DNA of 51,902 bases from Methanobacteriota archaeon (GCA_018623995.1 JAAZUV010000001.1:1-51902); one strand, 5' to 3'; positions 5,527-46,849 are shown, counted from the first letter of the stretch. Notes: generated from the letters alone by a model not told the origin. Made by a program: numbers and translations.

Positions 5527-5599
5527 GAGCAAACAAGGTCAAGGTTCATAACCGAACCATGTCGTCGTGAGAGTAGTCAAGAAGCGGAGGCTACATCCT

Positions 5600-8500
5600 A
5601 TGTCACTTAATCACAACCAAATGGCGTACGCAGCAATCATCTCAACCCTCATTTTTGGATCCCTCTTTGTGGGTATCAGTGGGTTCTATCAAACATCATC
5701 GGGCGTTGGTGATTTTGACAGCGCTGCTGAAGAAGAGATTACACCTCAAATCGAAATTTCATCCGGTGATGCAATTGACACCGATGGAGATGGCTTGCCT
5801 GATGTTTTGGAAGAGTCTCAATACGGTACGCTGAAAGACGATCCTGACACCGACAATGACGGTATGAGTGATGGTTGGGAAGTCGCTCATGGCCTTAATC
5901 CACTTGACAGTGGTGAAGCTGAAGAAGCTGAGGAAGAGTCTGGTTCCACAAACCAAGCTGATGGTGCAGAAGTAAGCAACGAAAGCGATTCGTGGCCTGA
6001 CCCAACCCAAGGAAAGTACGGTGACCCTGACAACGATGGTCTCACCAACGAGCAAGAAGCTGAATTGGGAACTGATCCTCAGCGAGCAGACACAGACAAC
6101 GATGGTTTGAACGACCGTTGGGAATCGATTTACACCATGAACGTCTCATCACCAGACGGAACGGTAACATTGTTCAATCCTCTGTCCGGAAACTGGGATT
6201 GTTCACTTCTCAACGGCCCACTCGAGCAAACACTTGCAGACATCCTTGAAGGATTTGAGGGTGCGCCAAGTTGGGAAGAATTGGAAAGCCCACTCGGCCG
6301 TCACTCCTGTGACCAAGTACTTGATTTCGATGACGATGGGCTGTTGAACTTCCAAGAGGAAGCATACGGAACCAACCCTGCTGCAAAGGATTCAGACAAC
6401 GATATGCTCCCTGACATTCTCGAAGTCAACAACGCCAACATGATTCTTGATTTCCAACTTGGTTCGAACTGTGGTGAACCTGTCATTACACCTCCTTCAC
6501 AACGTCTTCCAACCGCTGCTCCATTTGCCGATGAAGTGAGTGCATCGTGGTTTTTGTCGGACATGGATGGAGATGGCTATCTCAACGGGCCAAGTGACTG
6601 GGATACCGATGGTGACGGAATGCCAGACGGATTCGAGTATTGTTTCTCATTCAAGGACAACCATCCATTCGGCGTCTCAAACCCACAGAAAGCCGTTTCA
6701 GAACTGCTCAGCCCGTCCAATGCATCGGACGGATACAACGACTGGGATGAAGACGGTCTCAACAATCTTGAGGAGTATCAAGTTGCCCTCAAATTCGATC
6801 TCGTAAACGGGCTCCCATCCTTCACATCACCTTGGACTGAAGATACAGACCAAGACGGGATGCCTGATGGTTGGGAAGCGAGCCAATACAACCGGACGAC
6901 ACTTGAGTATCCTCTTAACCCACGGAACGCAAGCAACGCAAACGATGACATCGATTTCGATGGATGGGATTCAGATGGTGATGGTGACGTTGTCTTTGAT
7001 GACCTCGAACTAACGACAACTGTTGTCGATGTTTATGTTGAGAAAGGTGATTATGTCACAGCAAACTCAACCGTTGCACGAGGCCAATACACACTCGGCG
7101 GTGGTAACAAGCAAACCGTCTATCTCGTGGCTCCTGTTGATGGATACGTATACCATATCAACGTAGCACCCGGTGATCAGGTAGAATCCCGATTGTTTGT
7201 TTGGATGAACGTTGTGGAAGAATCCGAACGATTCACCAACTTGATGGAATATGAGGCTCGATTTGATGAAAACGGCAATGCTGTTGGTCGCTCAACAGAC
7301 CCAACACATGGAGACACGGATCTCGACGGTCTCCTCGACGGAATCGAAGTCGGTGGCTGGGAGATTCTGGTTGTCAACCGAGGCGTGCAATTGACGTGGG
7401 TTGTTTCGGATCCAGGACTTGCTGATACTGATTCGGATGGCCTTTCGGACTTTGTTGAGTTCTCCTCGGCCTGCGATGGTCAAGGATCCAACGCTTCCAA
7501 CGTTGATACAGATGGTGACGGTGAAAGTGATCAGCAAGAAGCTGTACTCGGCTACATTTTCGAAGGTGAACAATACTTTACCTCGGCTTGTATGTTTGAC
7601 ACCGACAACGATGGACTTGAAGACGGAGAGGAGGTTATCGCTGGTGCAGATAACTTCGTGACGCATGCCAACAACTCGGATACGGATGACGACGGTCTAA
7701 TCGATGGCAATGAAATTCTGTTTGTTCCACGACCGTTCCAATACGAAACCAATCCACTGATCAACGACACGGATGCTGACGGAATGCTTGATGGATGGGA
7801 AATGCAAGTCAAGTCCACAGAAGAGAACACCAATTCCCACTCTCTATGGGTTGCAATCTCAAATTGGGATCGACCCGGATGCACCGAGAGTACATCCAAC
7901 AGTTGTCTAATGGAACCTGGGGGCTATGTTTGGATCAATTGGCTCGGTGGCTTTGAGTTGCAGAAGAAGTACGAGGTTCATGAAATGAATCTCTCAGGAT
8001 TTGACATGCCCGGCAACCCTCTCTGCGATGGATGCAAAGGGCGTTGGGCTCTTGACCCTTCTCTCAATTCGTTGAAGGATGATACATACGATATTGACAA
8101 CGATACGCTGCCGAATGGTGCTGAATCTCCTACAAACTGGAATACAAACCCAGTCGACGATGATACTGATGGTGACAAACTCCCGGATGGTTGGGAAGTG
8201 CAATACTCGTACGAAGCAATCAACAATAATCTCGTTGATAATGCGACCATCAATGCATACGGCGCTCGTGGTGTAATGGACCCTTCAATGGCAGACAGTG
8301 ACCTTGACGGAATCAATGATGGAGAGGAAGACCCAGATCAGGATGGTCTCAACCGTACAGGTCTGATTAGGAAATACTGCCCAGGTTACAATGATTCAAC
8401 CAATGCTGAGTGCAACATTGACCCTGATACACCTGATGGAATGAAGTTCTACAACAACCTCGAGAACTACACCAACTATGAGGAATTGCAAAACGGTACA

Positions 8501-8761
8501 AACCCAGTAAGCAACGACACAGATGGTGACGCTTGGGAAGACGGCCCAGAAGTGTATTACATGGATCACGATGATGATGGAATGGCTACCGGTTGGGAGT
8601 ATCACTTTGAATTTGACCCATTTGATGGGGCAGACCGGCTTGTGGATAGTGATGGCGACGGCCACACAAATTACTGTGAGTTCAAGTGGGATACTAACCC
8701 ACGAAACCCAGTCAGTTTCCCTGGTCAAGGTGAATTGTGCGATCCGTTTGAAGGTCAGTGA
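5600..8761 (+). CDS. Secreted/anchored calcium-binding protein rich in bacterial-type thrombospondin type-3 (TSP3) repeats
   Basis: More than 15 repeats of the DTDxDGxxDGWE..G.NP type (DTDNDGMSDGWEVAHGLNPLD, DTDQDGMPDGWEASQ, DTDADGMLDGWEMQ ...). N-terminal hydrophobic anchor MSLNHNQMAYAAIISTLIFGSLFVGISGF. The ORF-track start 5567 is GTG; the first ATG is 5600. Confidence 0.8.
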   Translation: MSLNHNQMAYAAIISTLIFGSLFVGISGFYQTSSGVGDFDSAAEEEITPQIEISSGDAIDTDGDGLPDVLEESQYGTLKDDPDTDNDGMSDGWEVAHGLNPLDSGEAEEAEEESGSTNQADGAEVSNESDSWPDPTQGKYGDPDNDGLTNEQEAELGTDPQRADTDNDGLNDRWESIYTMNVSSPDGTVTLFNPLSGNWDCSLLNGPLEQTLADILEGFEGAPSWEELESPLGRHSCDQVLDFDDDGLLNFQEEAYGTNPAAKDSDNDMLPDILEVNNANMILDFQLGSNCGEPVITPPSQRLPTAAPFADEVSASWFLSDMDGDGYLNGPSDWDTDGDGMPDGFEYCFSFKDNHPFGVSNPQKAVSELLSPSNASDGYNDWDEDGLNNLEEYQVALKFDLVNGLPSFTSPWTEDTDQDGMPDGWEASQYNRTTLEYPLNPRNASNANDDIDFDGWDSDGDGDVVFDDLELTTTVVDVYVEKGDYVTANSTVARGQYTLGGGNKQTVYLVAPVDGYVYHINVAPGDQVESRLFVWMNVVEESERFTNLMEYEARFDENGNAVGRSTDPTHGDTDLDGLLDGIEVGGWEILVVNRGVQLTWVVSDPGLADTDSDGLSDFVEFSSACDGQGSNASNVDTDGDGESDQQEAVLGYIFEGEQYFTSACMFDTDNDGLEDGEEVIAGADNFVTHANNSDTDDDGLIDGNEILFVPRPFQYETNPLINDTDADGMLDGWEMQVKSTEENTNSHSLWVAISNWDRPGCTESTSNSCLMEPGGYVWINWLGGFELQKKYEVHEMNLSGFDMPGNPLCDGCKGRWALDPSLNSLKDDTYDIDNDTLPNGAESPTNWNTNPVDDDTDGDKLPDGWEVQYSYEAINNNLVDNATINAYGARGVMDPSMADSDLDGINDGEEDPDQDGLNRTGLIRKYCPGYNDSTNAECNIDPDTPDGMKFYNNLENYTNYEELQNGTNPVSNDTDGDAWEDGPEVYYMDHDDDGMATGWEYHFEFDPFDGADRLVDSDGDGHTNYCEFKWDTNPRNPVSFPGQGELCDPFEGQ

Positions 8762-11709: not shown

Positions 11710-12894
11710 ATGGCTTGGCTAGAGACGCTGCAAAGGATTCTATCTTCGGACGAAACGTTTCGTTTGACTATCGACGAATGCGTTGAACTCTACAATGACG
11801 CTCCTCTACATCAGTTGATGACAGCTGCCCATCATCGAAGATGTCTACATAACCCTTCGAATGAAGTCACCTATCTCGTCGATCGGAACATCAATTACAC
11901 CAATGTCTGCACGATCAACTGCCAATTTTGCTCCTTCTATCGGCCACCTGGTCACGAAGAGACCTATACGCAATCTTACGATGAAATACATGACCGTATT
12001 CACGAACTTGAGGCGATTGGAGGTTCTCGTATTTTGATGCAAGGGGGCGTGAACCCTGATCTTGAATTTAGTTGGTACATCGATCTCATCAAAGCGCTGC
12101 GAGAACGCCATCCAACGATTGATTTGGATTGCTTTTCGCCTATCGAGATTGAAGGAATAGCTGAAGTCACTGAATTGCCAACTCAGACAGTATTGGAACA
12201 CCTCAAGAATGCTGGAATGCATGGCCTACCCGGAGGTGGAGCTGAGATGCTTGTTGAGTCTGTACGAAAGGATGTATCTCCAAAAAAGGGACATCCTGAC
12301 AACTGGTTGCGTGTCATGAAAGAAGCCCAGCTTCTTGGATTGACAACCAGCGCAACCAATGTCATTGGATTTGGTGAATCAAACGCAGACAGAGTTCAAC
12401 ATCTTCATCGAATTCGAGAACAGCAAGAAGAAATCCGTTCGCTTGGGTTGCCTGGCTTCACATCCTTTATTGCATGGCCTGTGCAGTTGGAAACCAACAC
12501 CTTCGGAAAAAGAAATCGTGGTCAAAACAAGTTTGAACGAGGCGCTGGTTCAACGGAATACTTGCGCCATGTTGCGATTGCTCGTTTGTTCTTGGATAAT
12601 GTGGACCACATTCAAGCATCATGGCCGACGATGGGGATGGGAATTGCACAGATGGCCTTGCTCGCAGGTGCTGATGATGCAGGTTCAACCATGATGGAAG
12701 AGAACGTGGTCTCCGCTTCGGGAACGACAAAATTTAGTGCAACGGAATACGAATTACAACTTTCGATTCAACGTGCAGGATTTACCCCGAAGCGACGCAA
12801 CAGTGATTATGAGTTACTTGAAACACCTGACGCTCTCGTCAATGCACCTGAGACGATCAGTCAACCACCACGTCAAGTGGTTGAGTTGGTGTAA
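11710..12894 (+). CDS. Radical SAM enzyme of the MqnC/MqnE/CofH family (probably futalosine-pathway menaquinone biosynthesis)
   Basis: NINYTNVCTINCQFCSFYR (CxxxCxxC cluster in the family-typical context). C-terminal LLAGADDAGSTMMEENVVSASG. SD-like GAGGTGG upstream. I cannot separate MqnC from MqnE by eye. Confidence 0.8.
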   Translation: MAWLETLQRILSSDETFRLTIDECVELYNDAPLHQLMTAAHHRRCLHNPSNEVTYLVDRNINYTNVCTINCQFCSFYRPPGHEETYTQSYDEIHDRIHELEAIGGSRILMQGGVNPDLEFSWYIDLIKALRERHPTIDLDCFSPIEIEGIAEVTELPTQTVLEHLKNAGMHGLPGGGAEMLVESVRKDVSPKKGHPDNWLRVMKEAQLLGLTTSATNVIGFGESNADRVQHLHRIREQQEEIRSLGLPGFTSFIAWPVQLETNTFGKRNRGQNKFERGAGSTEYLRHVAIARLFLDNVDHIQASWPTMGMGIAQMALLAGADDAGSTMMEENVVSASGTTKFSATEYELQLSIQRAGFTPKRRNSDYELLETPDALVNAPETISQPPRQVVELV

Positions 12895-15800
12895 AACACG
12901 ACCCATATCTCAGCGACGATGTTTCGTCCACCTTTGCTTGATTCACCAGTTGGATTGTACTCTTGTCCATTGAAGAGACCTCGATAGGTCAACTCGTTGT
13001 TCTGGCCATTCATGTCAACCCAAGAAGTGATATCGAAACTCCATTGTTTGACATCCTGGCCAGCACACCAACCTGCTCTTCCAAACGGCCATGAACCGAA
13101 TTGATTGGCAACGACTCCATTGTTGACTTCGTTTTCACAGCCAGTGCTCGAATACACGATAGGATGCCACTCATAGGTGTGGTGTGAATCCATGTAGTAG
13201 TGGTGTTGATGGTCACAGAATTCAGCACAATTCGCATCGTCCTTCTGGAAACCATGACCCGTGATGGTTGCAACAATCTCGACTCTGGTCGTTTCACTTG
13301 GAACAGTGAAATTCAAGCTCCGAACATATCGACTTTCATTGTTGTATGTTCCATCGAATTGTCCTCCAGTGAAACCAAACTCAGCATCAAATGCTCGCTC
13401 ACCACTTCCCCAATTTGAAAACAGGAATTTGATGGTAAGGTCTCCTTTGTTTGCACCTTTGTATCTGAATCTTCGCTCTTGATCGTCTTCAAGCATGAAC
13501 AAATACGGGCTAATATCGGTTAACCAACGTCCTTCGCGACCATACGTTGTAATCCAGCGCATAAATTCAGTTCCACAAATCGATGAATTATCTGCATCAC
13601 AGATGTAGAGGTGTGCAAGATAATCCCATTCATGACATCCTCCATAACTTCCATCGCTCTTTTGATACCGGTTTGCTCTTTCATCACAGGCATGTTCATG
13701 GAACACTTCGAGCGTGTCATACGACGATAGATTCTCTGGTAATGTAAAAGTCGTATTCCTGTACGAATTGTGATTTGCTCCCCACCCACCAGCATGTCGA
13801 TCGAAATCGTAGAGGGTGACGACATCAATACCTGAATCCTGCATTCGAATTTCTGGTTCGAATTCGGCGTTCCATTGATGTGGTTCATATGTGTAGTGGA
13901 ATGGATCGTTCGTTTGTGAAACCCATGCATAAATTGAGCCAGTATCGCGTGCACGTTGGAAACGATCGATACCCATGAAGAATGGACTGTTGAAGTTGGA
14001 TATCATTTGGCCTAAGCCGCCTTGAATGTTGCTTGCATCCATATCGATGTAATGTATACGGCCATCCCACTGTTCTTCCTCACTTGGGTTGAGGCGTGCC
14101 TCAACATCGCTCTTTCGCGACAGGACATCGTTGTGGTAGCTTGAGTCAAATGAGCCGTAGAACAGATGGGTGTTATCAGGTAGGTTGCGAATAAATGTGC
14201 CCGGATTTGTAGACCATGTTGCAGAATTCGAGTTTCCACTTCCGTCTGTATACTTGAACATGAACAGATAGACATCATTTCCAGTCCACTTGTTTTGAAA
14301 TGTGAACGTGCCATCGAGCGTTGGTACTGTAAAGGTTGGTACGATGTCCATTGGGCCATTAACAGAAGTGCCTGTTGTCCATTGAACTGGCCTTTGGACA
14401 ATGGCACAACCATCAACATCAATCGTCCAACGTTCAGGACTGTCAGCACAAATGTCGACATTGGCAAACACACCATCACCATCGAGGTCAGCGCATCCTA
14501 CTGTGTTAACCGTTAATCCGCTCGGTGTACCTTCACATGCATCGATCAAATCGTTCACACCATCTCCGTCGGTATCACGTTCGATGGCAGCGCACCCAAA
14601 TTCATCAACATCCGTAGCATTGGCCGGCGTCGTTGGACACAAATCCAATGTTGCCCCAGTTGCATTGACATCGTTGACGTTATCGTTGTCATCATCTACG
14701 TCTTCAGTCGCATCGTAGCAACCATCCATGTCGAAATCCGTGTCCGTTGTTCGCTCTGATTGCCAATTTGAACGACCTTTCGGACATCCATCTGTTGCAT
14801 CAAATTCACCATCGTTATCGTCATCAGAATCTTCGAGGAGATCGTTGCAACCATCCTGATCCCAGTCGTTGTAGAGATTCGCAGGCCAATTGATTTCACC
14901 ATCCAAGCAGGCATCATCGACATCGAGAATACCATCACCATCATCATCGTCATCGTTGGTATCGTCATGACATCCATCTCGATCACGATCGTTCTCAAGC
15001 GTGCTTGTCCACCCCAGACTCGATGTGCAACCATCATTGGCATCCAGAATTCCGTCGTTATCATCGTCTAGGTCCTCGTCGAAATCTCTGCAACCGTCCT
15101 GATCAGCATCACTTTGAGCATTTGATGCCCATCCGTCCGATTCACCATAACCATCTGGACATAAATCAACACTATCTAGGATACCATCTCCATCTGCATC
15201 GTTGTTTTCTTCAACGATGATGGTGATGTTCTTCGAATCCTCAGTAAGCGTGTATTCTCCACATACTGCACTTGTTCGAACAACGAATGTCTCTGTACGT
15301 ACGTCAAGATCGGTCAAAATGTAGGAAAAGCTACCGTCATCCTGTAGAGGTAGTGTGTTCGTTGTCACCGATGAATCTTCTTCATTGATTTCGATCACGG
15401 TTGTGCAGGTTTCCAACGCTTCATGCAGCACTTGACCTTGAAGAATAAGCATTGCAGCCTCAACGACGAGGAATTGTGGTGCAACAATCGATGTCGTTCC
15501 TTCTTCTGGTAGGAGAATTTCGATTGTATTTGTCATTTTAATCTGTTCTCCCATTGTTGGAAAAATCGTTAGATCGACAGTGTAGGTACCTGGTTCCTTT
15601 GGTAGTAATACAATGGAAATACTTGTTGTCTTTTCCGTTATGCTGTAGTCAGATTGGCTGACAGCTACACCTGAGTGGAGTATGCTTGCCTCGACTGAAA
15701 AATCACCGACGCCTGTTGTCTCAAGGAGTACGTTTAGATTTGCAATTTCATCAAGTTCGCCAGTAATTGATTCTCTATCCCATTCTGCTGTTAATGTGAA

Positions 15801-15914
15801 TGGGATAGGTGCAGGCTCTTCCTCAACAATCTCAGAATTCGTGTCACTGTTTCCGAAACAACCGGATAGCATTAACAACGAAAGCAAAACTGCAAGGAAA
15901 GGCTTGTTGGCCAT
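12873..15914 (-). CDS. Secreted lipoprotein: Ig-like N-terminal region, TSP3 calcium-binding repeat array, C-terminal PNGase F-like (peptide N-glycan amidase) double domain
   Basis: Lipobox MANKPFLAVLLSLLMLSGC. DxDxDG repeats (DADGDGILD, DADQDGCRD, DDDNDGILD, DRDRDGCHD ...). The C-terminal ~320 aa are colinear with PNGase F: CHEWDYLAHLY, NCAEFCDHQHH, GCENEV..FGRAGWCAGQD. Confidence 0.8.
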   Translation of the reverse strand: MANKPFLAVLLSLLMLSGCFGNSDTNSEIVEEEPAPIPFTLTAEWDRESITGELDEIANLNVLLETTGVGDFSVEASILHSGVAVSQSDYSITEKTTSISIVLLPKEPGTYTVDLTIFPTMGEQIKMTNTIEILLPEEGTTSIVAPQFLVVEAAMLILQGQVLHEALETCTTVIEINEEDSSVTTNTLPLQDDGSFSYILTDLDVRTETFVVRTSAVCGEYTLTEDSKNITIIVEENNDADGDGILDSVDLCPDGYGESDGWASNAQSDADQDGCRDFDEDLDDDNDGILDANDGCTSSLGWTSTLENDRDRDGCHDDTNDDDDDGDGILDVDDACLDGEINWPANLYNDWDQDGCNDLLEDSDDDNDGEFDATDGCPKGRSNWQSERTTDTDFDMDGCYDATEDVDDDNDNVNDVNATGATLDLCPTTPANATDVDEFGCAAIERDTDGDGVNDLIDACEGTPSGLTVNTVGCADLDGDGVFANVDICADSPERWTIDVDGCAIVQRPVQWTTGTSVNGPMDIVPTFTVPTLDGTFTFQNKWTGNDVYLFMFKYTDGSGNSNSATWSTNPGTFIRNLPDNTHLFYGSFDSSYHNDVLSRKSDVEARLNPSEEEQWDGRIHYIDMDASNIQGGLGQMISNFNSPFFMGIDRFQRARDTGSIYAWVSQTNDPFHYTYEPHQWNAEFEPEIRMQDSGIDVVTLYDFDRHAGGWGANHNSYRNTTFTLPENLSSYDTLEVFHEHACDERANRYQKSDGSYGGCHEWDYLAHLYICDADNSSICGTEFMRWITTYGREGRWLTDISPYLFMLEDDQERRFRYKGANKGDLTIKFLFSNWGSGERAFDAEFGFTGGQFDGTYNNESRYVRSLNFTVPSETTRVEIVATITGHGFQKDDANCAEFCDHQHHYYMDSHHTYEWHPIVYSSTGCENEVNNGVVANQFGSWPFGRAGWCAGQDVKQWSFDITSWVDMNGQNNELTYRGLFNGQEYNPTGESSKGGRNIVAEIWVVFYTNSTT

Positions 15915-15944: not shown

Positions 15945-17078
15945 CTAACGTTCGCCGATGAAGAACTGTTCTGTTCTGGGATCGTTGATCTCTAGATCTT
16001 CCAGGTGAACGATTGAATCCGGAAATTGAACATGAACTGGGCATACCCAAAGCAGAGGCATTTGCTTGTTTCGTTTAATTTTTAGAATAAATTCCCAATG
16101 GATGCGGTGCAGTGGTGAATTGACCGTTCCAGGCCACGATTGGTTAGGGGGACTTATGGAAAATGTTCCATCATCTTCAATTCTCGAGGAACCACCCTCG
16201 GCAGAAAATCGCATGGGCCGTAAAAAGACGCCACCTTGAATATCCTTTCTCTCGATTGGCGAATCTTCACCACCCGCAGTACCATCATCCAGACTTGCCT
16301 CCCAGTGATGGGGTAACGGTGTAGATAGACCCACAGGCGGTTGTGAACCCTCCGTTGTATTGGAAAGTTCAATGAGAGCCTCTCTTGACGGTGGGAGCGT
16401 ACCCACTTGCCAATGACAGGATATCGATTTCCAATCTGGCAACTCACTGGGCAATTTGATATGACCGGACAATGGCTTTCCACTTACGATTGGGTGATCA
16501 AATTCGACAACTGGTTGCTCTATTGGTGCTCGAAAGAAGTCTTGTTGACGTTTGAGATCGACGAAATTAGCAATTAATCGGAGTACAATTGGTAGCATCA
16601 GTATGGGCACAACAATGATGCTTAGAATAGGGTAATCTAGAAGGCCAATCTGTAGGCTTTTCGTTCCAACGCTTGGTATGCCTAAGCTACTTAGCAACGG
16701 TTCCAGGAAGAGGTAGACAAGTGTCGAGAGAAGAAGAATTACCGCAGCATTAACCATTCTTCGAGCAATGCCATGGAGTTTGTTTGGAAGGATGTACCAA
16801 CCTCTTCGTTGTTGTTTTACAAGTTTAACAAATGGTTGGCTATCTGTACGGAATTCAGTCATTCCATCATACGTTTCTCCATCCTTGTTAACAATGGTTC
16901 GTTCAATCAACCATCCTTCTGAACTTTGAATGGTGTAAGGTGGCAGCACGTTGACTACCTCATCATCGCTGAGGTTGGAGGCGATTTCATCTTCAAAGAT
17001 TGGTGCAGCATTCGCATTCAATCGTTTATCATCAAACGGAGGATAGCGAACGCGATGAACAATTGACCATGATGACAT
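15945..17078 (-). CDS. Hypothetical membrane protein (two or three central TM helices, beta-rich C-terminal domain)
   Basis: ATG start 9 nt after the upstream stop. Hydrophobic segments AAVILLLSTLVYLFLEPLL and ILSIIVVPILMLPIVLRLI. No family recognised. Confidence 0.55.
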   Translation of the reverse strand: MSSWSIVHRVRYPPFDDKRLNANAAPIFEDEIASNLSDDEVVNVLPPYTIQSSEGWLIERTIVNKDGETYDGMTEFRTDSQPFVKLVKQQRRGWYILPNKLHGIARRMVNAAVILLLSTLVYLFLEPLLSSLGIPSVGTKSLQIGLLDYPILSIIVVPILMLPIVLRLIANFVDLKRQQDFFRAPIEQPVVEFDHPIVSGKPLSGHIKLPSELPDWKSISCHWQVGTLPPSREALIELSNTTEGSQPPVGLSTPLPHHWEASLDDGTAGGEDSPIERKDIQGGVFLRPMRFSAEGGSSRIEDDGTFSISPPNQSWPGTVNSPLHRIHWEFILKIKRNKQMPLLWVCPVHVQFPDSIVHLEDLEINDPRTEQFFIGER

Positions 17079-26088: not shown

Positions 26089-27222
26089 ATGTGGGTAACA
26101 AGAGGGTCAATCATGGTGCGGCAGCGTCGTAAGTTCAAGCCTCGTGTGAGAACGACTCGCTCACTTGATCTGGACAACGTTGGTTTGGATGAGACACAAA
26201 AAATTCAACCACCTACTGCCTTTGGTGATCTGTGGAAAATCGCACCACCACTTTCAACCCGTTTGTACGAGAAAAGTGCACTTGGTCATCGGCTCGAGGA
26301 TGGCTCAATCGCGTTAACTGCATCAGAAGTCCTTTTTTGTCACTGGCATAGGCACGTTCCACTACCTGAAGCATCATGGCTTGAATCAGAACTTGAGAAG
26401 AATCCACGCCTGATTTATGAAGCCATCATATTGGACGTTGGCCGCAACGGTGGCGAAATGATTGTACCTACCATTCACAGACCAAATATCGAACACTTGT
26501 CTTGGGCTATTCGTTGGCATCGTGACCGGAATCATCTCAAGGATGACTACCAATCCTCCGTTTCAATTGCAACCACTCACGACGCTCTGGATTGGAAAAA
26601 TTTGCTCGCTTGGTGCCGCCAGTCCAAAGAAATGAACATCGATTCAGAGTTATTTGTTATCGATGATGAGTTGGATGTGACGATGTACAAAATCGATTTA
26701 ATCAATCCAAGAGGAGATTTGGTCCCTTGGGCTAATTTGAGTGAATCAGACAAGACGAATTTCCTCAGCCATTGGAACAAACGAACGCTCACGGAATCGG
26801 GAAGTTATGTTGGTTTTGATACACCATGGAATTGGCAGCAGATCGGTGTTGAGCACATGTCTGGAAGAGTTTTAAGGAAGGAAGAGGATTCTTTCATCGA
26901 ACAAATCATCGTAGAAAATGCGGCATCTTCAGAAGAATCTCTTTTGATGAACGATCTCCTGAACCGCGGGTTGTTGCTCCGACCCGGGTTCAAGTATGGA
27001 TGTCGTTGGAGAGTGTACGATGGTGATCTCAACGAATCACATGCTCCTTGGTTGATCCAACCACACAAAGAAGCAGCAACAACATGGGAAGGCGTATGTT
27101 TGAGTGTTCGACTTGCTGAAGGTGTTCACAAACAGTGGGTTTGTGCTATTCCAGAGGGAGATGTATGGAAGTACCTAAGGATTCAAAGATGGTCACCTGG
27201 CAAGAATTCCTCGGCTTCGTGA
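26089..27222 (+). CDS. endA: tRNA-splicing endonuclease, duplicated (alpha2-type) form
   Basis: C-terminal catalytic unit LLRPGFKYGCRWRVYDGDLNESHAPWLIQP..VRLAEGVHKQWV (Tyr/His/Lys positions present). The N-terminal half is a degenerate repeat. The ORF-track start 25906 would overlap the divergent gene; ATG 26089 or 26113 is more plausible. Confidence 0.8.
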   Translation: MWVTRGSIMVRQRRKFKPRVRTTRSLDLDNVGLDETQKIQPPTAFGDLWKIAPPLSTRLYEKSALGHRLEDGSIALTASEVLFCHWHRHVPLPEASWLESELEKNPRLIYEAIILDVGRNGGEMIVPTIHRPNIEHLSWAIRWHRDRNHLKDDYQSSVSIATTHDALDWKNLLAWCRQSKEMNIDSELFVIDDELDVTMYKIDLINPRGDLVPWANLSESDKTNFLSHWNKRTLTESGSYVGFDTPWNWQQIGVEHMSGRVLRKEEDSFIEQIIVENAASSEESLLMNDLLNRGLLLRPGFKYGCRWRVYDGDLNESHAPWLIQPHKEAATTWEGVCLSVRLAEGVHKQWVCAIPEGDVWKYLRIQRWSPGKNSSAS

Positions 27223-29246
27223 TGTTCCCTTTGTTCGGGCTCTTTCTTTGTTGAAGTGCGTGCAAACAGAGAGGTAGCAAACCACACAGAGAAAATGAGG
27301 AAGAAGAGCGTGAGCACGAACGATTGATCACCAATCAAGGGAATCTTATCGTCTTCAACAGCCTTGAGTTCAACATCAATAGTCCAAGATTCTCCATTGA
27401 ACGATTGAAGGTGAACAGTTCCCATAACATACATGTTGTCTTGAAGAAGTCCTTGTGGATCAACATTCAATACAATGGTACCATTGCCATTCTCAATCTC
27501 TACGGTCGGTTCTGCTGTGGCGATGCGTGACAGAGGTCCTTCAATTTCAATCGTGTATTCTGCAGAGCCAATTCCTTCGCCTTTGTACGGGATGATGAGT
27601 GTACTTGAATCAACCACAGGTATTGTTTCCTCTAAACGCATACTTATTGGAAGAGGAATTGAGCCAAGTGTTGTGATGGAAATTTGTACATCAAAGACAT
27701 CATCTCCACATTGTATTGTGCCAGTGAACGTAGCTGTAGAGTCAATCATGCCGACCTCGGTGAATGTCCCATAGTGCTTTGAGCCAATTGCTGAATCGTT
27801 TGTAAATGTGACTTGACGACCATCGCTACCACCGAGGGTACCCCAGCATGGTTCCGTTGAACCACTCGAAATTTGTTCAAACACAAGTGGGTCTTCTTGT
27901 AGGAGTGTTGTCCCAAAATCATCGAAATTGATGTGCGTTGATGGCGAGCAATTTGAGGAATGAAATTCGAGATTCCACTGTCCTTCATCCTCAACAACTC
28001 GAACATGCCACGGAACGAGGATACCATCGTGGTCGCGTATGAGAATACCACGTTCACCAAATTCATCACCTGGTTGAAACAAATCACTTGAGACACCATC
28101 GTTAACACCACGTAACTGTTCTTGATTACCATCTGCCTCAATCGTTTTCAGGTATGGTCTTCGTTGGTCAATGTTCATCGCATTGTGTGCTGAATCACCT
28201 GCTGCAAAGTCTTCGAGGAGGACGAGTACACCTTCGCCTGGTAACGATGCATCATACCCTTGTTGTACTCGCTTCTCAATCCAAATGAATTCATCAATCG
28301 ACACCTGTATTCGAACCCTATCGCCTCCGTTGGTTCGATCGTCTAAAGCGATGACTGGACCAATGCAAGGGCTAGGAGAATTCGATGGCCATTCCAGGGA
28401 AACTTCACGCGTTGCTCCGTGGCCGATTGCAGCCATCGTGGGTCCAGTTGGCAGGGATGGTGTGTCACCTCCTCCATTCCAATTGCCGCTCGCCATGATG
28501 TCCCAGACACCGATGCCTTTCCATGAACCCGAGTACCCCGAATCGTGAACGGGATAAAGGTCGTATGCTCCGAATTGGTGCATCATTTCGTGCAGAATGG
28601 TTCCAAATCCATTGACTCCATGCCTCATTGAGGACATCGTGTAATGTTCAAACGAAACATCTCCACTTTTGATGGGCTCTGAGAACGATGTGAAATGTGA
28701 CCAAATACGATTGGAGGAACCAGAACCTTGTTCTTGCGCAAGTGTTGAATGAAGAATGAGAAATCGATCTACAACTCCATCCTCGTTGAGATCGTACTCT
28801 GGTAATGTTGGATCATCAATGGATTCGACAACATACTTTGCAAGTAGAGCGGGTAAGAATTCAGTACCATCGCCATAATCCCGGCCGTATTGTCCATCGT
28901 CACCGTAGGCTGAAAGCGGCTTTGGTGCTCGTATGATTTCATCGTGCATGGTGATGTTCACAATCACCTCTTGACCGAGCGCCTGGGTAAAATACTCTCC
29001 AGAATAGTCCTGAAATTCAGATTCGATTTGTGCTTTCGCATCATTGTTCAGTTGATTCGATTCGAAATCAACGAGAACTACAAACCACGATTCGTTTGTT
29101 TGCAAACCAACCAAAGGCGCATATGTATCCGTTGGGCTTGACACATCGATTTGGAACAGGTCATTGATCTCGTTTGAGTATATTTGGGAGGCGACGGCAA
29201 GAACCAAGCAGAGGACCATCCCAATGGCTTGTCCCGTTTTGCCCAT
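27183..29246 (-). CDS. M6-family (immune inhibitor A-like) zinc metallopeptidase, membrane anchored
   Basis: ILHEMMHQFGAYDLY (HExxH plus the downstream DLY typical of M6), FLILHSTLAQEQGSGSSNRIWSHF, an N-terminal signal, and C-terminal TM FVLTLFFLIFSVWFATSLF. Confidence 0.8.
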   Translation of the reverse strand: MGKTGQAIGMVLCLVLAVASQIYSNEINDLFQIDVSSPTDTYAPLVGLQTNESWFVVLVDFESNQLNNDAKAQIESEFQDYSGEYFTQALGQEVIVNITMHDEIIRAPKPLSAYGDDGQYGRDYGDGTEFLPALLAKYVVESIDDPTLPEYDLNEDGVVDRFLILHSTLAQEQGSGSSNRIWSHFTSFSEPIKSGDVSFEHYTMSSMRHGVNGFGTILHEMMHQFGAYDLYPVHDSGYSGSWKGIGVWDIMASGNWNGGGDTPSLPTGPTMAAIGHGATREVSLEWPSNSPSPCIGPVIALDDRTNGGDRVRIQVSIDEFIWIEKRVQQGYDASLPGEGVLVLLEDFAAGDSAHNAMNIDQRRPYLKTIEADGNQEQLRGVNDGVSSDLFQPGDEFGERGILIRDHDGILVPWHVRVVEDEGQWNLEFHSSNCSPSTHINFDDFGTTLLQEDPLVFEQISSGSTEPCWGTLGGSDGRQVTFTNDSAIGSKHYGTFTEVGMIDSTATFTGTIQCGDDVFDVQISITTLGSIPLPISMRLEETIPVVDSSTLIIPYKGEGIGSAEYTIEIEGPLSRIATAEPTVEIENGNGTIVLNVDPQGLLQDNMYVMGTVHLQSFNGESWTIDVELKAVEDDKIPLIGDQSFVLTLFFLIFSVWFATSLFARTSTKKEPEQREHHEAEEFLPGDHL

Positions 29247-29296: not shown

Positions 29297-30586
29297 TTAT
29301 GTTCGAATTGCATCCTTTTCATCATCAGACCAACTTTTTCCAGATACTCGCAATGTGCCTTGTATTAATTCTGGCCATTGCTTTGCATCTACAAACCTCA
29401 GCTTCGTTCTTTCCTCTGGTTCAACATGACGCATGCATGCGTCCAAACGTTGTTTTGAAGACCATGGATCAACTACGTTTTCCAGATGGATATTGACTTC
29501 CTTACGTAACTGAATATTGTCGTTGGGTAACGAGCCTTGAAGACCGAGAAGGTCAAGACCACGCAACGTGCAACGTGCCGAAGAAACAGTGTCCTGAAAC
29601 GCTTCAGGTAATGGTGATGCATCGCATCCTCCAATGATCACGTCGGTTAGTTGATGTTTGGACACCATAGAAATGAGGTGATTTCGCTCACCGATGTTGT
29701 CGCAAAGAGATTCATATCGTAAAAGACCGGTATGTTCTGGTGATGTATCGATTGGATAAGCAACACCTTGGCATGAACAATCAACATACGTTACGTAACG
29801 TCGACGTCCCTCGTGATCAAAAATGGCTGAGGGGTTGTATATTTCGTTCGATACACGTATGCTTTTTCGGATGGAGAATTCGAGATAGATGATCATCAAA
29901 CTTAGGAGGATGATGTTGACACCGTTCCATCGTCCTGGTAGTGAGAGAAAGAGTACGAGACCGCCAATTCCGAGCAAACGAATCCGCCACCAATCCTGAT
30001 TGTTCTCGGTAATGAGTCCAAGTGCTCCAGATGTTGTTGTTGCAAATGCAAGAATGTACGTGATAAGAAGTCCCCAGAAGATGGATAAGGCAAGAACGAA
30101 CAATGAAACGGCATTATACTGAGCGGTTAATCCCATGTCGGAATGAATGGAATCTCCCACATCATACAGTTTCGGAATGAAAACGTAAAACAAGGCAAAC
30201 AATGTGAAGTAGCCCAGTGTCGTAGAAGAAAGCATCCAACGCTTCAACATGGATTGTTCATCTTGGGTTAAACCAGGTGCGGCAAATCGATACATCGATA
30301 CCAGTGCAAACGGAAGGACACACAATATTGCAAGAAATACGGCACTTAACCATCGTACAACACTCCATGAAGCAGGTTCGTAGAGTGTTAAACAGTCCGA
30401 CGTTCCGCACGGATTGAGGTGTGCAAGAACCACGCTCAAGATCTCATCAATGGTTGTCATTATTCCAATCGTTAGCACTGCAATGAGAACAAAACCAAGC
30501 GTTGCTTTTTGCGTCAATGTATCGAAGTGGACTTGGACAGGTAAAGCAAAGTCTCCTTCGAGCTTCAAGCCACTTGGAGCGGACAA
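29297..30586 (-). CDS. Divergent TatC-like six-TM protein fused to a ~190-aa C-terminal domain of unknown function
   Basis: Colinear with E. coli TatC by eye: LYEPASWSVVRWLSAVFLAILCVLPFALVSMYRFAAPGLTQDEQ vs [40 protein letters not shown]. Six hydrophobic segments in TatC order. The C-terminal soluble part contains YVDCSCQG and IIGGCDASPLP. Confidence 0.55.
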   Translation of the reverse strand: MSAPSGLKLEGDFALPVQVHFDTLTQKATLGFVLIAVLTIGIMTTIDEILSVVLAHLNPCGTSDCLTLYEPASWSVVRWLSAVFLAILCVLPFALVSMYRFAAPGLTQDEQSMLKRWMLSSTTLGYFTLFALFYVFIPKLYDVGDSIHSDMGLTAQYNAVSLFVLALSIFWGLLITYILAFATTTSGALGLITENNQDWWRIRLLGIGGLVLFLSLPGRWNGVNIILLSLMIIYLEFSIRKSIRVSNEIYNPSAIFDHEGRRRYVTYVDCSCQGVAYPIDTSPEHTGLLRYESLCDNIGERNHLISMVSKHQLTDVIIGGCDASPLPEAFQDTVSSARCTLRGLDLLGLQGSLPNDNIQLRKEVNIHLENVVDPWSSKQRLDACMRHVEPEERTKLRFVDAKQWPELIQGTLRVSGKSWSDDEKDAIRT

Positions 30587-40960: not shown

Positions 40961-41707
40961 ATGAACAGCAATCGTCCCTCTTTTGAGGATACGTTCGGAG
41001 GCACGTATCTTCTCGTTGAACCAGGTTCGTTTAACCTCGGTGATGAGGTGGGATCTGGACACCCAAACGAGCAACCGATTGTCTCAGTTGAAGTTTCAGA
41101 ACCATTTTTCTTAGGAGTTCGTCCAGTAACCCAAGCCCACTGGACCGCAGTTATGAACAACAATCCTTCAAAATTTCAAGATGGTTGGAGCGCAGGTCTT
41201 AGGCCTGTTGAAAGGGTCTCATTTGACGATGTCCACGTCTTCCTAAAAAGGCTCAACAATGAACAAGAAGAGTACATTGGGTTCAAAGGATATTGGAGAC
41301 TTCCATCTGAAACCGAGTGGGAATATGTTGCGAAAGCAGGTACCAAATCGCGATGGTCTTTTGGCAACAAAGATTCAGAACTTGACGCCCATGGATGGCA
41401 TGCTGGGAACAGTGGTGCTACAACCAGAGAAGTGGGCTCGAAGAAAGCAAATCCATGGGGCTTCTTCGATATGCATGGTCTTGTCCATGAGATGACGAGC
41501 GATGCATGGCAACCATCGCACGAAGGTCGTCATCAACAGCAAAATCCCGTTGGTTCAGTTAACGAACATTACGTAGCGAAAGGCGGTTCATGGTTCACAG
41601 AATCAGATTCAACCCGATCGTCATCTCGACGTAAAGTTCACCGAAAAGACCGCAAAGATGGCATCGGTCTGCGCCTTGTTTGGGAGCCATCTGAACCTGT
41701 TGCTTAG
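40961..41707 (+). CDS. Formylglycine-generating enzyme (FGE/SUMF1)-family domain protein
   Basis: RPVERVSFDDVHVFLKRLN, WRLPSETEWEYVAKAG, NPWGFFDMHGLVHEMTSD, KGGSW, IGLRLV. Confidence 0.85.
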   Translation: MNSNRPSFEDTFGGTYLLVEPGSFNLGDEVGSGHPNEQPIVSVEVSEPFFLGVRPVTQAHWTAVMNNNPSKFQDGWSAGLRPVERVSFDDVHVFLKRLNNEQEEYIGFKGYWRLPSETEWEYVAKAGTKSRWSFGNKDSELDAHGWHAGNSGATTREVGSKKANPWGFFDMHGLVHEMTSDAWQPSHEGRHQQQNPVGSVNEHYVAKGGSWFTESDSTRSSSRRKVHRKDRKDGIGLRLVWEPSEPVA

Positions 41708-42401: not shown

Positions 42402-45400
42402 TCATGGCTGTTTCCCTAATCGATCAAGGTATTGTTGGCCGTAATGCACCCATTGCTCCATCGACCATCCTGCCGGAAGACCCTCTTCGGGGAGTGGTGG
42501 TCCTGAGTTTACAGGTGAATCTTGACTAACGACTTTTTCATCGACAGGGGCAGATGGTTGAACTAATGGTTGCTGCGATATTGGAGGGCCTGCAACAAAG
42601 ACTTCGTCTTCCTCAACTGGGATTCTTTGTCGACGAATGACAAAGAGAATTGCTGCAAGTACGATGAACCCGAGGACCGATGCAACAAGGGTTGGTCCAT
42701 TGAGATTCTTTGAGAGGAATGATTCCTGTTGTGCGGGCCGTTCGAAGCTGAATGTTCGCGCATCTGTGAATTCTATTACCCCATCCGTTGTTGATGCACG
42801 GATAAGAACATCACCATTGTAGGAACCTCCTAATCTCTGTACTTGGCATCGTATGTCTTTCAGGCTCTCCGTGCTTCTTGAATAAGGCAATGAAACGTTC
42901 GTTTGCTCGTTGGTTGCTACGAGTGTCCCATCGCACGTAACTTGCCAGTTGTCTGGATGGGAAATGGCGTAAGAGACGTCTTCTGATTGCGTCGAATAAC
43001 TCGTCAGGTTTAGCCAAAATTCACCAAAAGTCACATCCGTTTGATTGTCCTGTGATGACAGCTCCATTGCAATCTTTCTCTGCTGATCGACCGTAATCAA
43101 TGTCTGACGCTCAATACGAACGATTTCACCTTCTGCATCCATGCCTCCTTCGACAAACACGGTTACAACAATTCGCGTGTTGAGTGGAACATTATCTCCA
43201 ACAACAACATCAACAAAAATTGTCTTTGTGGAGCCGGCGCTCATCGGAAACGTCAGAATGTTGCCGGATTCGGATGTAGGCCCGCCAACGCCAGCGGTTA
43301 GGAAGGCGACAACATCGCTTGTCGGCGGGGAAGTAGAAAGATCGAAACCAACATCCATACTTGATTCCAGAGCGTTTCCGATGTTTGTAACAGTGCCATT
43401 GAGTGAGACAGTCGTACCAACCATGGCGTGATAATCGAGTGATGACCCATTGTATTCTGGATACTTAACGCTACCAGTGATCATATCGATTGAAACATGA
43501 TTGTCTGAGAACTCAATATCTTGCCCTTCTGGGTGAAGTTCGAGTGTGATGGTGTGGAATTCCCCAGCTGCTTCCGTCATGGGAACCTCCAACAATACGT
43601 CGAATTCAATGGAATTCTCTCCTGAATATACAACTCCTAAGTCGATGCTGTTTGTTTCCTGAATCACTCCATCCACTCGAATTGAGTAGGTCCAGGATTC
43701 AGGTGCATCGACAAGACGTATCGTTGCACTTGTCGGACCATTTCCGTTGTTGATTGCCTCGAGTCCAATAATCGTCGTAGCGCCTGGTTTGAGCACCGAC
43801 TCCGAATCAACCATGAGCAGTTCCACATCGTACAACGTCTCAATCACAATGTTGCTGTATTCTGGCCCGTCGTATTGCATCCCACTTCGTGTTGAAGTGA
43901 GAATTGGATTGAATGTAGGGGCAACGTCGTTTGCCTGAGCGTTCTCAGGTGCCGTCACTGCAATGTAGAACGATGCACTAGACTCGGGATTAATCACGAT
44001 TGACGGACGTTGTTCAGCTTCAATCTTCCATCCAATCGCTTCGATGAAGTCAACAGATAAATCAAAACTATCCTGGCGTGTTGCCTGGTTTGTAATAGTG
44101 TATTGAATTTCAACTCTCTCTCCAGACGATAACATCGTTGTATCCATCGCATCGATATCAAGTTCAATCAAAGCATTGGATATCATCGATGCTTGGATGA
44201 CAATCGATTCAGTGAGGGTTCGTGAGGTGTCATTTTGAGCTGTCATCGTCAACCAAAAGTCGCCTGTTTTTTCAGGCGTCTCTCCAGCTGGTACCGTCAT
44301 GATGAGTTTGACAGATTGTATTTGGTTCGGTATGAGTCGAATGGATGGGGATTGGTCAAACGCAAGATTGACACTCCAACCAGCATCCAACGATTTTGGT
44401 GCTGTTTGTAGATCAAAGACATCGGTTGCTTGACCTACGTTTTCGACATCAATGAAGAAGGCGCACGATGAACCTGGTGCACATTTTGGTTTTGTTTCGG
44501 GAATATGAATGAATGGAATTCGATCTGCTGAAACTTGATACTGCATTGACTCTTCGACGGAGAAACTTGGATTCTGCAAACTACTGGCTGCAAATGTGAG
44601 AGGTACGAAACCAACTGTTGCATTCGGACTTGGTTGTAACTTTACATCGATTTGACGCGATTCACCGGGAAGGAGACGAACACCTGTGTTTGGATTCACA
44701 CCCGCACCACTTGGGAACGAAAACGCAACATTCCAATCATTCGGAAGATTTGGAACTGAGGGCACCAATGAATCACTTATGTTTCCTGTGTTGGTGAGTT
44801 CCAACCGAATTTTGCCCCAAGCGCCTGGTATGGAGCCGTCAGTGAAGATACCTGTGACGTCGACGTTGTATTCTTCAGTTCTCGCAGCTTGGTCATAAAC
44901 AAGAACAAAATCATCAAACCAGTATCCTACATCAGTTCCGGCTGAATCACTCGTAAACGTAAATTTGAATCGAGAATTTGAATGGAAGTGAGAATTCACA
45001 TCGGCTGGAATCAATGGTGTGGTGTGGCCCATGTGGTTGTTTGAAATCGTTTGCCAGTTGGCGAGTGTCGCTCCGACAGTGCCTGCAATGGTTGCCAAAT
45101 CATCCCACGCGCCTTGGTTATTTAGCGCATAGACTTTCATGTTGTCATTGACTTGTGCACTACCCGTGTAAAAGAACGTCAAACCGTTTGTTCTGGTAGG
45201 ATTCGCCACGATATCACTCATGTCCATGATTGGTGTCATGAGATCCGTCAGCAAATTGTTGCCATAATTACCAGACTGCCCTTGTCCTACGTGGCATGCT
45301 TGACCCATGCTCAGAGCTGTGTCTGAGTTTGTACCCCAATACGACCCAGCGTTCCAACCAACGAGAGATGTACAGGTGAAATACATCGTTGCAACCGTAT

Positions 45401-45926: not shown

Positions 45927-45955
45927 GGCGGTTAATCCGCTCCTATGTATTTGAT

Positions 45956-46849
45956 TTATTCGCTCGAGGAGTCTTCGTTGGCGAGTCTCAACTTTTCCTC
46001 GTTTTTCCGTTCCTTTGCACGAGCAGCAAAGTAGACCGTAAAGGATGGAATCAAAACCATTGAAAAACATCCAACGACTGCTGCGAGAGCCCAAAGGAAC
46101 TCAGTAGCCGCATCGATTTCAAACAGTTCTACACTCGCAAAAGCCTCGTTGACAGTGTAAACGTTGACTTGAGGCTGAACCGATTTGTTTCCAGGCTCTG
46201 TAATCTGGATGATGATTTGGGAGGGGGAGTGTGTGTAGTTGATTTCACTGCGTGCTAACGATTCCGCTTCACCAAGTGAATCGGCGAAGACTGTGCCATT
46301 CGATCGCCGTGCGGGATCAGTAGAGGTTAGCGATTGAATGTTTACTTCACTTGATTCAGCTTCAACCTCAATCGATTCTCCGTATACACAGTGTTCGGAA
46401 CATCGGAAATCAACAGTTTTACCATCGACGACAACCTCCGCATCATCAACACCAAGGAATGGGTGGGAATACAATTTACCGTCGTTTGTCATTTTGACAA
46501 CCGCTCCACTTGCCAAATCAGTGACAGTCATGTTGACCCACGTGAGATTTGCACCATCGGCAGACACGGTACCAATCCATGTTGTTTCGTTGTTCTGGAC
46601 GATCTTTGTCAATTCGAGATTCTCAAACGATGAATCCGTTGCTTCGGTTTCGTAGATGTAATAGCTTGGAGAAATTGTGGCTCCATACACTGCATATGAC
46701 AACAAAATGATGAGTGTTAATGATAACCCAATGAGCGTTCTCAAGAGGTTCGGGTTTTGGGCCAACGCCTTCTTCATCAACCAATCCAAAACCCAGCCAT
46801 TCATGAACACTTGCACGTGGCCAAAAACACAATGATGCTCTTCATTCAT
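45956..46849 (-). CDS. Bitopic membrane protein (N- and C-terminal TM helices flanking a ~200-aa extracytoplasmic domain)
   Basis: TM1 LLRTLIGLSLTLIILLSYAVYGA, TM2 FLWALAAVVGCFSMVLIPSFTVYF, and a Lys/Glu-rich tail. The start is uncertain (ATG 46849, 46804 or 46777). Confidence 0.55.
   Translation of the reverse strand: MNEEHHCVFGHVQVFMNGWVLDWLMKKALAQNPNLLRTLIGLSLTLIILLSYAVYGATISPSYYIYETEATDSSFENLELTKIVQNNETTWIGTVSADGANLTWVNMTVTDLASGAVVKMTNDGKLYSHPFLGVDDAEVVVDGKTVDFRCSEHCVYGESIEVEAESSEVNIQSLTSTDPARRSNGTVFADSLGEAESLARSEINYTHSPSQIIIQITEPGNKSVQPQVNVYTVNEAFASVELFEIDAATEFLWALAAVVGCFSMVLIPSFTVYFAARAKERKNEEKLRLANEDSSSE

Follow-up and report, generated by a model that had tools for sequence, protein, structure and literature searches.

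The closest described counterpart of the protein considered here is zebrafish Ngly2, a long-sought animal acid PNGase, which was characterised together with its cryo-EM structure in late 2025 (Honda et al. 2025, PMC12753239; PDB 9lwg). Ngly2 is a lysosomal homodimer with an acidic pH optimum, composed of thioredoxin-like (Tx-like), protease-associated (PA) and PNGase domains; its activity is abolished by the substitutions D421A and E555A, and nearly so by W480A (PMC12753239). Orthologs were reported "even in some bacteria", and archaea were not mentioned (PMC12753239). In the present study, a PNGase-bearing open reading frame (ORF) was analysed in a 51,902-nucleotide stretch of archaeal DNA (GCA_018623995.1, JAAZUV010000001.1:1-51902; hereafter, the window). 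The ORF is located at 12873..15914 on the minus strand, as are all its parts discussed below, and encodes a protein of 1013 amino acids (aa). Its C-terminal part is held with high confidence to be a PNGase F-superfamily domain that belongs to the Ngly2-like branch and is competent for catalysis. The whole protein is read here, with a probability of about 0.6, as an extracellular, membrane-tethered PNGase (peptide-N4-(N-acetyl-beta-glucosaminyl)asparagine amidase, EC 3.5.1.52; an enzyme that removes N-linked sugars from proteins), displayed on the surface and acting on exogenous glycoproteins for nutrition.

The window belongs to a metagenome-assembled genome (MAG) of Ca. Poseidoniaceae (MGIIa, Marine Group II (MGII); Thermoplasmatota), and the archaeal host supposed in an earlier sequence-only reading of this DNA is thereby borne out. 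The same reading had assigned the C-terminus of the protein to an amidase domain of the PNGase F superfamily in which the catalytic Asp and Glu are kept; Pfam, alignments and the predicted fold support this. Its remark that enzymes of this type are characterised from bacteria is outdated by the work on zebrafish Ngly2 (PMC12753239), which, rather than the PNGase F of Bacteroidota, is the closest characterised relative. The novelty implied by that reading is also lower than it seemed, as the NCBI PGAP pipeline has already given the name "peptide-N-glycosidase F-related protein" to several entries (MEC7260873.1, MEC8609556.1, MEC8588818.1 and MDP6865523.1) of the 90%-identity cluster around the exact ORF protein, which is present in NCBI and has 423 cluster members. 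The uncharacterised, automatically annotated protein thus represents an enzyme type that was already known, in a display architecture specific to its lineage.

The ORF is real according to the ORF listing of the window. It encodes, in order, a signal peptide with a lipobox, two immunoglobulin-like (Ig-like) domains, a TSP3-like array, a Tx-like domain, a linker helix and the PNGase double jelly-roll, and this layout is common to 69 full-length orthologs with lengths of 993-1107 aa. The region 12873-13850, singled out before as a module of the last ~320 aa, corresponds to aa ~689-1013 and agrees with the borders of the PNGase domain in the AlphaFold2 (AF2) model. The size of the module, on the other hand, was too small: because the Tx-like domain, homologous to that of Ngly2, and the linker helix precede the PNGase domain, as in Ngly2, the functional unit comprises aa ~515-1013.

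The identification of an Ngly2-like PNGase follows from Pfam, phmmer, profile and AF2/Foldseek matches taken together with invariant motifs and the Ngly2 mutants. The Pfam model N-glycanase_C (PF09113), named earlier as a suitable check, matched aa 857-992 with 73.6 bits against a gathering cutoff of 25 (E 1.8e-20). As was found by the phmmer search of all PDB sequences with aa 539-1013 as a query, the best match is 9lwg, annotated as "Si:dkey-256h2.1" (zebrafish Ngly2; E 1.2e-45). The PNGase F entries 1pnf, 1pgs and 3pms were matched with E values of 8e-9 to 2e-8, and aa 698-956 are colinear with PNGase F residues 6-258 across both jelly-rolls. The colinearity with the Elizabethkingia enzyme that had been noticed before was reproduced in this alignment, including the pairings of TFTLPENL...CHEWDYLAHLY with TFTFPADV...CDEWDRYANVY (Asp60 opposite D764), of NCAEFCDHQHH with GCAEWCFRTH (Glu206 opposite E898) and of GCENEV...FGRAGWCAGQD with GCSANP...PDRAGWCPGMA. 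A family profile, built from an alignment of 98 family members and searched against the PDB, matched Ngly2 with E 1e-101 and PNGase F with E 4e-20.

The AF2 model of aa 500-1013 was obtained with a predicted local distance difference test score (pLDDT) of 93.3 and a predicted template modelling score (pTM) of 0.92. Foldseek, queried with the same 514 aa, again placed 9lwg at the top (E 5e-37; TM-score of 0.79 normalised to the whole query) and also matched PNGase F 1png (E 2.3e-16; TM-score of 0.72 normalised to the target). Together with the N-glycanase_C score, these values lie far outside what chance would give. The model comprises two side-by-side eight-stranded jelly-rolls, so the PNGase F-type double jelly-roll expected from the sequence-only reading is indeed predicted. 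The N-terminal jelly-roll (aa ~694-840; 13395..13835) aligns with residues 6-137 of PNGase F and 373-~520 of Ngly2; its first strand begins at approximately aa 697, and it carries C743/C760, W763-D764-Y765, C772/C780 and W797. The C-terminal jelly-roll (aa ~841-1013; 12876..13394), delimited by N-glycanase_C and the alignments, carries TG-H887-G, C896-A-E898-F-C900 and C926/C950.

Asp764 (codon 13623..13625), which is aligned with Asp60 of PNGase F and Asp421 of Ngly2, and Glu898 (codon 13221..13223), aligned with PNGase F Glu206 and Ngly2 Glu555, are the catalytic residues, and neither of them varies in any of the 98 family members or of the 70 Poseidoniales orthologs compared. The same invariance was observed for W763-D764 (W59-D60 in PNGase F, W420-D421 in Ngly2), for C896-[A/S]-E898-F899-C900 (C204-A-E206-W-C208 in PNGase F), for H887 of the TGHG motif (H546 in Ngly2, W191 in PNGase F), for W797 (W480 in Ngly2) and for a GRW motif. 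W763, W797 and H887 are counterparts of residues with which Ngly2/PNGase F bind glycan. The eight cysteines of the PNGase domain are invariant as well; they are presumed to form the pairs 743-760, 772-780, 896-900 and 926-950, three of which correspond to disulfides of PNGase F, and four conserved pairs look typical of a secreted enzyme. Across 62 distant orthologs, the PNGase domain is 66-69% identical, the Tx-like domain 64%, the TSP3 array 61% and the Ig-like region only 18-24%; on this comparison, the enzyme head is under purifying selection.

One detail of the sequence-only reading did not survive the alignments. It had paired FSNW with the TETW block of PNGase F and had taken this to suggest an altered glycan specificity. 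The alignments by phmmer and by profile agree in placing FSNW (aa 832-835) opposite V134-Y-G-T137 of PNGase F, and E118 of PNGase F faces K819, which rules out the pairing. The argument for altered specificity therefore has no basis, and the position of E118 is also occupied by Lys in Ngly2, a proven PNGase. K819 itself is variable among orthologs (R/A/Q/K). The residue after the catalytic Asp, Tyr765, corresponds to Arg61 of PNGase F and His422 of Ngly2 and varies as Y/R/F/M across the family.

The Tx-like domain (aa ~515-670; 13905..14372) lacks a CxxC motif. The family profile matches Ngly2 in two pieces, of which positions 74-211 correspond to the Tx-like residues 67-202 (E 9e-9) and positions 207-569 to residues 342-687. 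Foldseek matches for the N-terminal part of the model include Bcp1 peroxiredoxin (3drn), DsbE (3gl3) and thioredoxin (3hdc), and a Pfam scan of the domain gave no match. Since there is no cysteine within aa 504-742, the domain is redox-dead, as in Ngly2. It is followed by a linker helix (aa 671-690, residues 172-191 of the AF2 model; 13845..13904), which occupies the same place as the linker helix of Ngly2 (PMC12753239). No insert of the PA type was found: the alignment skips Ngly2 residues 203-341, and the matching segment is only 24-34 aa long in all 98 prokaryotic members. The aligned prokaryotic Tx-like+PNGase proteins thus uniformly lack the PA domain of animal Ngly2.

The N-terminal half of the protein probably serves as a membrane tether. 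The signal peptide and lipobox (15858..15914) consist of an n-region (MANK), an h-region (PFLAVLLSLLM) and the lipobox L-S-G-C19 (aa 16-19), which fits the consensus [LVI][ASTVI][GAS]C. The lipobox had already been noticed in the sequence-only reading, and its Cys19 is kept in 69 of the 70 orthologs and in every one of the 69 full-length orthologs from genome loci, as a motif [LFMI][SAT][GA]C, although identity falls to 20-40% in the residues around it. The window has 31 large ORFs, and no second lipobox was seen in them. Cys19 is a candidate for lipidation. The adjacent Ig-like region, also foreseen, was resolved by AF2 into two tandem beta-sandwiches (aa ~39-235; 15210..15800; all-beta, pLDDT 84.7), and Foldseek matched them to titin Z1Z2, NCAM Ig5-FN1 and Sap S-layer domains (E~2e-8). 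These domains evolve fast, and their homologs are confined to close relatives.

The Asp-rich array (aa 236-505; 14400..15209) is 26% Asp and has regularly spaced Cys. A scan found ten DxDxD[GN]xx[DN] motifs between residues 239 and 455, of which four occur in double units of ~40 aa, in accordance with the array of DxDxDG calcium-binding repeats described before. From seven to ten such motifs were found in every ortholog. The Pfam TSP_3 model scored 17.2 bits, under its cutoff of 25, and the NCBIfam MtsC TSP3 model gave a partial match only (E 2e-5), far under its cutoff. The designation "TSP3-like" thus holds by motif and not by membership in a curated model.

When GTDB species were scanned with a single genome each, at least 499 relatives were obtained; the best 80 of them (55-98% identity) were examined as loci, and all came from Poseidoniales MAGs or single-amplified genomes. 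The PNGase gene occupies one conserved syntenic position in at least 80 species genomes of this order. The gene order is topoisomerase, GGR-like reductase, a 377-aa predicted membrane protein (hyp377), PNGase, CofH, M24 aminopeptidase, hyp509 and a TSP3 giant protein; each of these neighbours was seen in 65-75 of the 80 loci, and the other contigs end early. The contigs JAOMAZ010000001.1 ("Deltaproteobacteria bacterium AH-558-G13") and CAXRJJ010000101.1 ("Yoonia sp.") show the full eight-gene Poseidoniales synteny and are almost certainly mislabelled or mis-binned archaeal contigs, judging by this gene order. A divergent archaeal subclade (P0017-P0027; 45-47% identity), which includes a Thalassarchaeaceae-labelled entry, was considered as a possible paralog; this was rejected, as P0022 occupies the same syntenic slot and is an ortholog.

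The phylogenetic analysis was carried out by neighbour joining (NJ) with Kimura correction on 307 columns of the PNGase domain, a tree that is sound for clade membership and not for deep branching order or for the direction of transfer to animals. It placed the archaeal sequences in one monophyletic group (99/100) with two subclades (86 and 95), and this group is nested among sequences from bacteria that bear Myxococcota or Deltaproteobacteria labels. Zebrafish Ngly2 is located on a separate branch, and PNGase F forms a long outgroup. This nesting of one archaeal clade among bacterial homologs indicates that the acquisition was ancient and not recent. The horizontal transfer from Bacteroidota suggested in the sequence-only reading was not recovered: a recent event of this kind is contradicted by the 21% identity to PNGase F, by archaeal monophyly among Myxococcota-type Tx-like+PNGase proteins and by order-wide synteny. 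The simplest reading would be that the ancestor of Poseidoniales gained a Tx-like+PNGase gene from bacteria in a single ancient event, and that the gene was then fused to a tether specific to this lineage. The family is of modest size: at 50% identity, it comprises 1093, 519 and 234 clusters for E<=1e-3, 1e-10 and 1e-30, respectively, among the 1.84 billion representatives searched.

Homologs of ~740 aa with EGF domains were at first glance candidates for eukaryotic sequences; this origin was rejected, as one of them, P0041 (L082 6001-8226), lies in a dense bacterial context (OmpA, GH1, pectin acetylesterase (PAE)). P0041 combines EGF-like modules with a PNGase domain beside GH1, PAE, laminin-G and IgGFc_binding genes. 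Its surroundings resemble a locus for the breakdown of glycans or glycoproteins and differ in this from the housekeeping genes around the archaeal gene.

Several neighbouring genes deserve description. The gene of hyp377 (15945-17078, minus strand) ends 30 bp upstream of the PNGase start and could be co-transcribed with it; it keeps its position in ~70 of 80 orthologous Poseidoniales loci, with 34-94% identity, and the protein had no match in Pfam, NCBIfam or PDB sequences. On the other side, the CofH-family radical SAM gene (11710-12894, plus strand) converges with the PNGase ORF; the 3' ends overlap by 22 nt, and a short gap is found instead in more distant orthologous loci. A 1064-aa protein with TSP3_bac repeats (TSP1064; 5567-8761, plus strand) is a conserved neighbour. 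Its conservation across Poseidoniales (65-97%) is above that of the PNGase itself; no PDB sequence was matched, and the Myxococcus CglD/MtsD models matched only partially, through the repeats and far under their cutoffs.

As the sequence-only reading stated, the window also encodes an M6 peptidase and other large secreted proteins. The M6-family metalloprotease (27183-29246, minus strand) has a plain signal peptide without a lipobox and is located directly downstream of a TatC homolog (29297-30586, minus strand). An operon link between the PNGase and this peptidase was considered and rejected, as the genes are 13 kb apart with housekeeping genes between them. A protein of 1230 aa encoded elsewhere in the window (42402-46094, minus strand) has NPCBM_assoc, CARDB and Ig-like modules, and a gene of the formylglycine-generating-enzyme (FGE-sulfatase) family is also present (40961-41707, plus strand); they add further surface-protein content, and content that is possibly related to sulfated glycans.

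In the proposed mechanism, the protein would be exported by the Sec pathway and then lipid-anchored at Cys19. The two variable Ig-like domains and a ~270-aa TSP3-like stalk, stiffened by Ca2+, would hold the Tx-like+PNGase head off the cell surface. In seawater or on particles, the head would act on N-glycoproteins or glycopeptides with a chitobiose core and hydrolyse their GlcNAc-Asn amide bond, releasing free glycan and converting Asn to Asp, and the stripped polypeptides would then be open to the many peptidases that these archaea secrete as protein scavengers. As the PA lid of Ngly2 is lacking, access to the active site is probably open, like that of PNGase F, and the Tx-like domain may dimerise the enzyme, as in Ngly2. 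MGII are inferred to be proteolytic heterotrophs relying on external amino acids (PMC6461757), and the authors of the Ngly2 study proposed deglycosylation before proteolysis for yolk proteins (PMC12753239). By analogy, the same sequence of steps is plausible for MGII.

A number of points weigh against this reading. The pairing of D764 and E898 with PNGase F's catalytic residues is set by alignment. The N-terminal jelly-roll escaped the Pfam model N-glycanase_N (PF09112), a match to which had been anticipated: aa 689-851 scanned alone reached 11.3 bits (E 0.3), where the cutoff is 22.4, and the full-length protein gave no N-glycanase_N match at E<=1. The Tx-like+PNGase branch escapes this model generally, and the miss is treated here as limited sensitivity of the model, as direct alignments and the fold match cover the first jelly-roll. 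The PNGase F substrate contacts R61 (Tyr here) and E118 (variable here) are unconserved, which bears on glycan specificity and pH optimum; these two residues do not define the superfamily, as Ngly2, which is active, has His and Lys there. Among archaea, lipobox lipidation was shown only in haloarchaea (Haloferax, AliA/AliB; PMC12462473), and the distribution of AliA/AliB homologs (arCOG02177) has gaps in Thermoplasmata (PMC12462473). The PNGase neighbourhood is composed of housekeeping genes (topoisomerase, GGR-like reductase, CofH-family radical SAM, M24 aminopeptidase) and does not form a glycan or protein utilisation locus; with such neighbours, and with the M6 peptidase 13 kb off, the context gives no functional support. 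A literature search combining PNGase or glycosidase F with Poseidoniales, MGII or Thermoplasmatota, or aimed at archaeal PF09113, returned nothing relevant, and no biochemical, transcript or proteome evidence was found for any archaeal member.

Tethering to the producer's own surface would equally suit a self-directed enzyme which trims or recycles the cell's own N-glycosylated envelope (S-layer, archaellins or the neighbouring TSP3 giant proteins). Vertical inheritance and a fixed position in a core-like genome are in line with such a housekeeping role, and nine N-x-S/T sequons are found in the protein itself. The domain order, however, puts the catalytic head at the membrane-distal end of a long stalk. 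Many euryarchaeal N-glycans also lack the GlcNAc-beta-1,4-GlcNAc-Asn core required by PNGase F-type enzymes, which counts against action on the cell's own glycans. Moreover, bacterial homologs occur in organisms without general N-glycosylation (Myxococcota), so the ancestral role was probably exerted on foreign glycoproteins. Self-directed trimming is thus considered unlikely.

The labels of the nearest non-archaeal homologs, Myxococcota and Deltaproteobacteria, would also fit an offensive or interaction factor that strips N-glycans from living cells (phytoplankton, or archaea with chitobiose-core S-layer glycans) during particle or host attachment, paralleling predatory Myxococcota, among which this family is frequent. 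MGIIa are inferred to be particle-attached (PMC6461757), the fast evolution of the membrane-proximal Ig-like domains is of a kind frequent at interaction interfaces, and TSP1064 partially matches the CglD/MtsD models through its TSP3 repeats. This evidence is purely circumstantial, though: the latter matches are repeat-driven and far under cutoffs, and toxin, lysis and secretion-system genes are absent nearby, which makes an offensive role quite improbable. Still further from expectation is a non-catalytic adhesin or lectin in which the PNGase fold serves as a glycan-binding head only. Poseidoniales TSP3-repeat genes have been read as adhesion genes (PMC6461757), and the combination of Ig-like and TSP3 modules is typical of adhesins. 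Yet the catalytic residues and the CAEFC and WD motifs are invariant in the 98 members and in the 70 orthologs, which span ~50% divergence; this would not be expected if catalysis were dispensable, and an adhesin without activity is very improbable. Nutritional deglycosylation of exogenous glycoproteins remains the preferred reading.

A broader proposal is made tentatively, with less than even confidence. All Poseidoniales may carry one vertically inherited, surface-displayed Ngly2-type PNGase, gained in a single event, before MGIIa and MGIIb diverged, from a bacterium resembling Myxococcota. No PNGase would then have been known from archaea before, and no enzyme of the Ngly2 family that works at the pH of seawater; the enzyme would perform an entry step by stripping N-glycans from phytoplankton glycoproteins or living cell surfaces before proteolysis. 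In the surface ocean, Marine Group II is the most abundant group of planktonic archaea. If the proposal is true, an unrecognised step exists in marine dissolved-organic-nitrogen turnover, and some of the MGII "thrombospondin adhesion genes" encode stalk-mounted enzymes. Rinke et al. 2019 (PMC6461757) used "thrombospondin genes" throughout Poseidoniales as markers of adhesion. This category may be partly misassigned, because at least the present TSP3-repeat protein carries an enzyme head, and caution is advisable in treating every MGII TSP3-repeat gene as an adhesin.

The interest of the protein comes mainly from its order-wide conservation in globally abundant archaea and from its relation to Ngly2. 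Should the enzyme be active, PNGases reach the third domain of life, and MGII gain a defined extracellular deglycosylation step that fits protein scavenging, with a single conserved marker gene trackable in ocean metatranscriptomes. Active PA-less prokaryotic relatives of Ngly2 could show which residues decide between an acid and a neutral pH optimum (the Tyr/Arg/His that follows the catalytic Asp; the invariant His of TGHG), and they could reveal where animal Ngly2 originated. A salt-tolerant PNGase working at seawater pH with an open active site would also be a possible glycoanalytical reagent.

Among the known systems, PNGase F of Elizabethkingia meningoseptica (1pnf, 1png, 1pgs, 3pms) shares with the archaeal protein the double jelly-roll, W59, Asp60, Glu206 and the disulfides C51-C56, C204-C208 and C231-C252, which correspond to C743-C760, C896-C900 and C926-C950. 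Identity in the PNGase domain is ~21%, in contrast to ~35% with Ngly2. PNGase F has no Tx-like domain, and in the archaeal protein R61 is replaced by Tyr, W191 by His and W207 by Phe, E118 is unconserved, the C51-C56 loop has a 12-residue insertion and there is one extra disulfide. The superfamily fold is also found in PNGase F-II (4r4z/4r4x), in the plant/insect-active PNGase (7zgn) and in the putative PNGases of Bacteroides (3ks7, 4qhb), with Foldseek E values of 1e-11 to 1e-9; these are much more distant, being only 10-14% identical with a TM-score of ~0.4, and possess other accessory N-terminal domains.

The bacterial Tx-like+PNGase proteins (Myxococcota, e.g., Vulgatibacter and Sandaracinus) are 31-38% identical over 93-99% of the Tx-like+PNGase part; they also lack the PA insert and share the invariant motifs, and the archaeal clade is nested among them in the NJ tree. 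Unlike the archaeal protein, they are 520-680 aa long with short N-termini, none of them has the Ig-like+TSP3 stalk, and they are uncharacterised; some have EGF-like modules and glycan-degradation neighbourhoods. With Ngly2, the archaeal protein shares the redox-dead Tx-like domain, the linker helix, the PNGase double jelly-roll with its set of corresponding residues (D421, E555, W420, W480 and H546), the extra disulfide C772-C780 (VCCNDSSPYC compared with ICDADNSSIC) and the Lys opposite E118 of PNGase F. It differs in having Tyr765 in place of His422, in a 500-aa N-terminal extension (lipobox, two Ig-like domains and TSP3 array) instead of a lysosomal targeting context, and in the setting of an archaeon living at ~pH 8 instead of the lysosome, and Ngly2 is not the nearest branch to the archaeal clade in the tree. 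The archaeal protein also has no PA domain, which in Ngly2 interrupts the Tx-like domain (residues 186-318) as an active-site lid. The comparison suggests that animal Ngly2 arose from a two-domain ancestor in prokaryotes by insertion of the PA domain.

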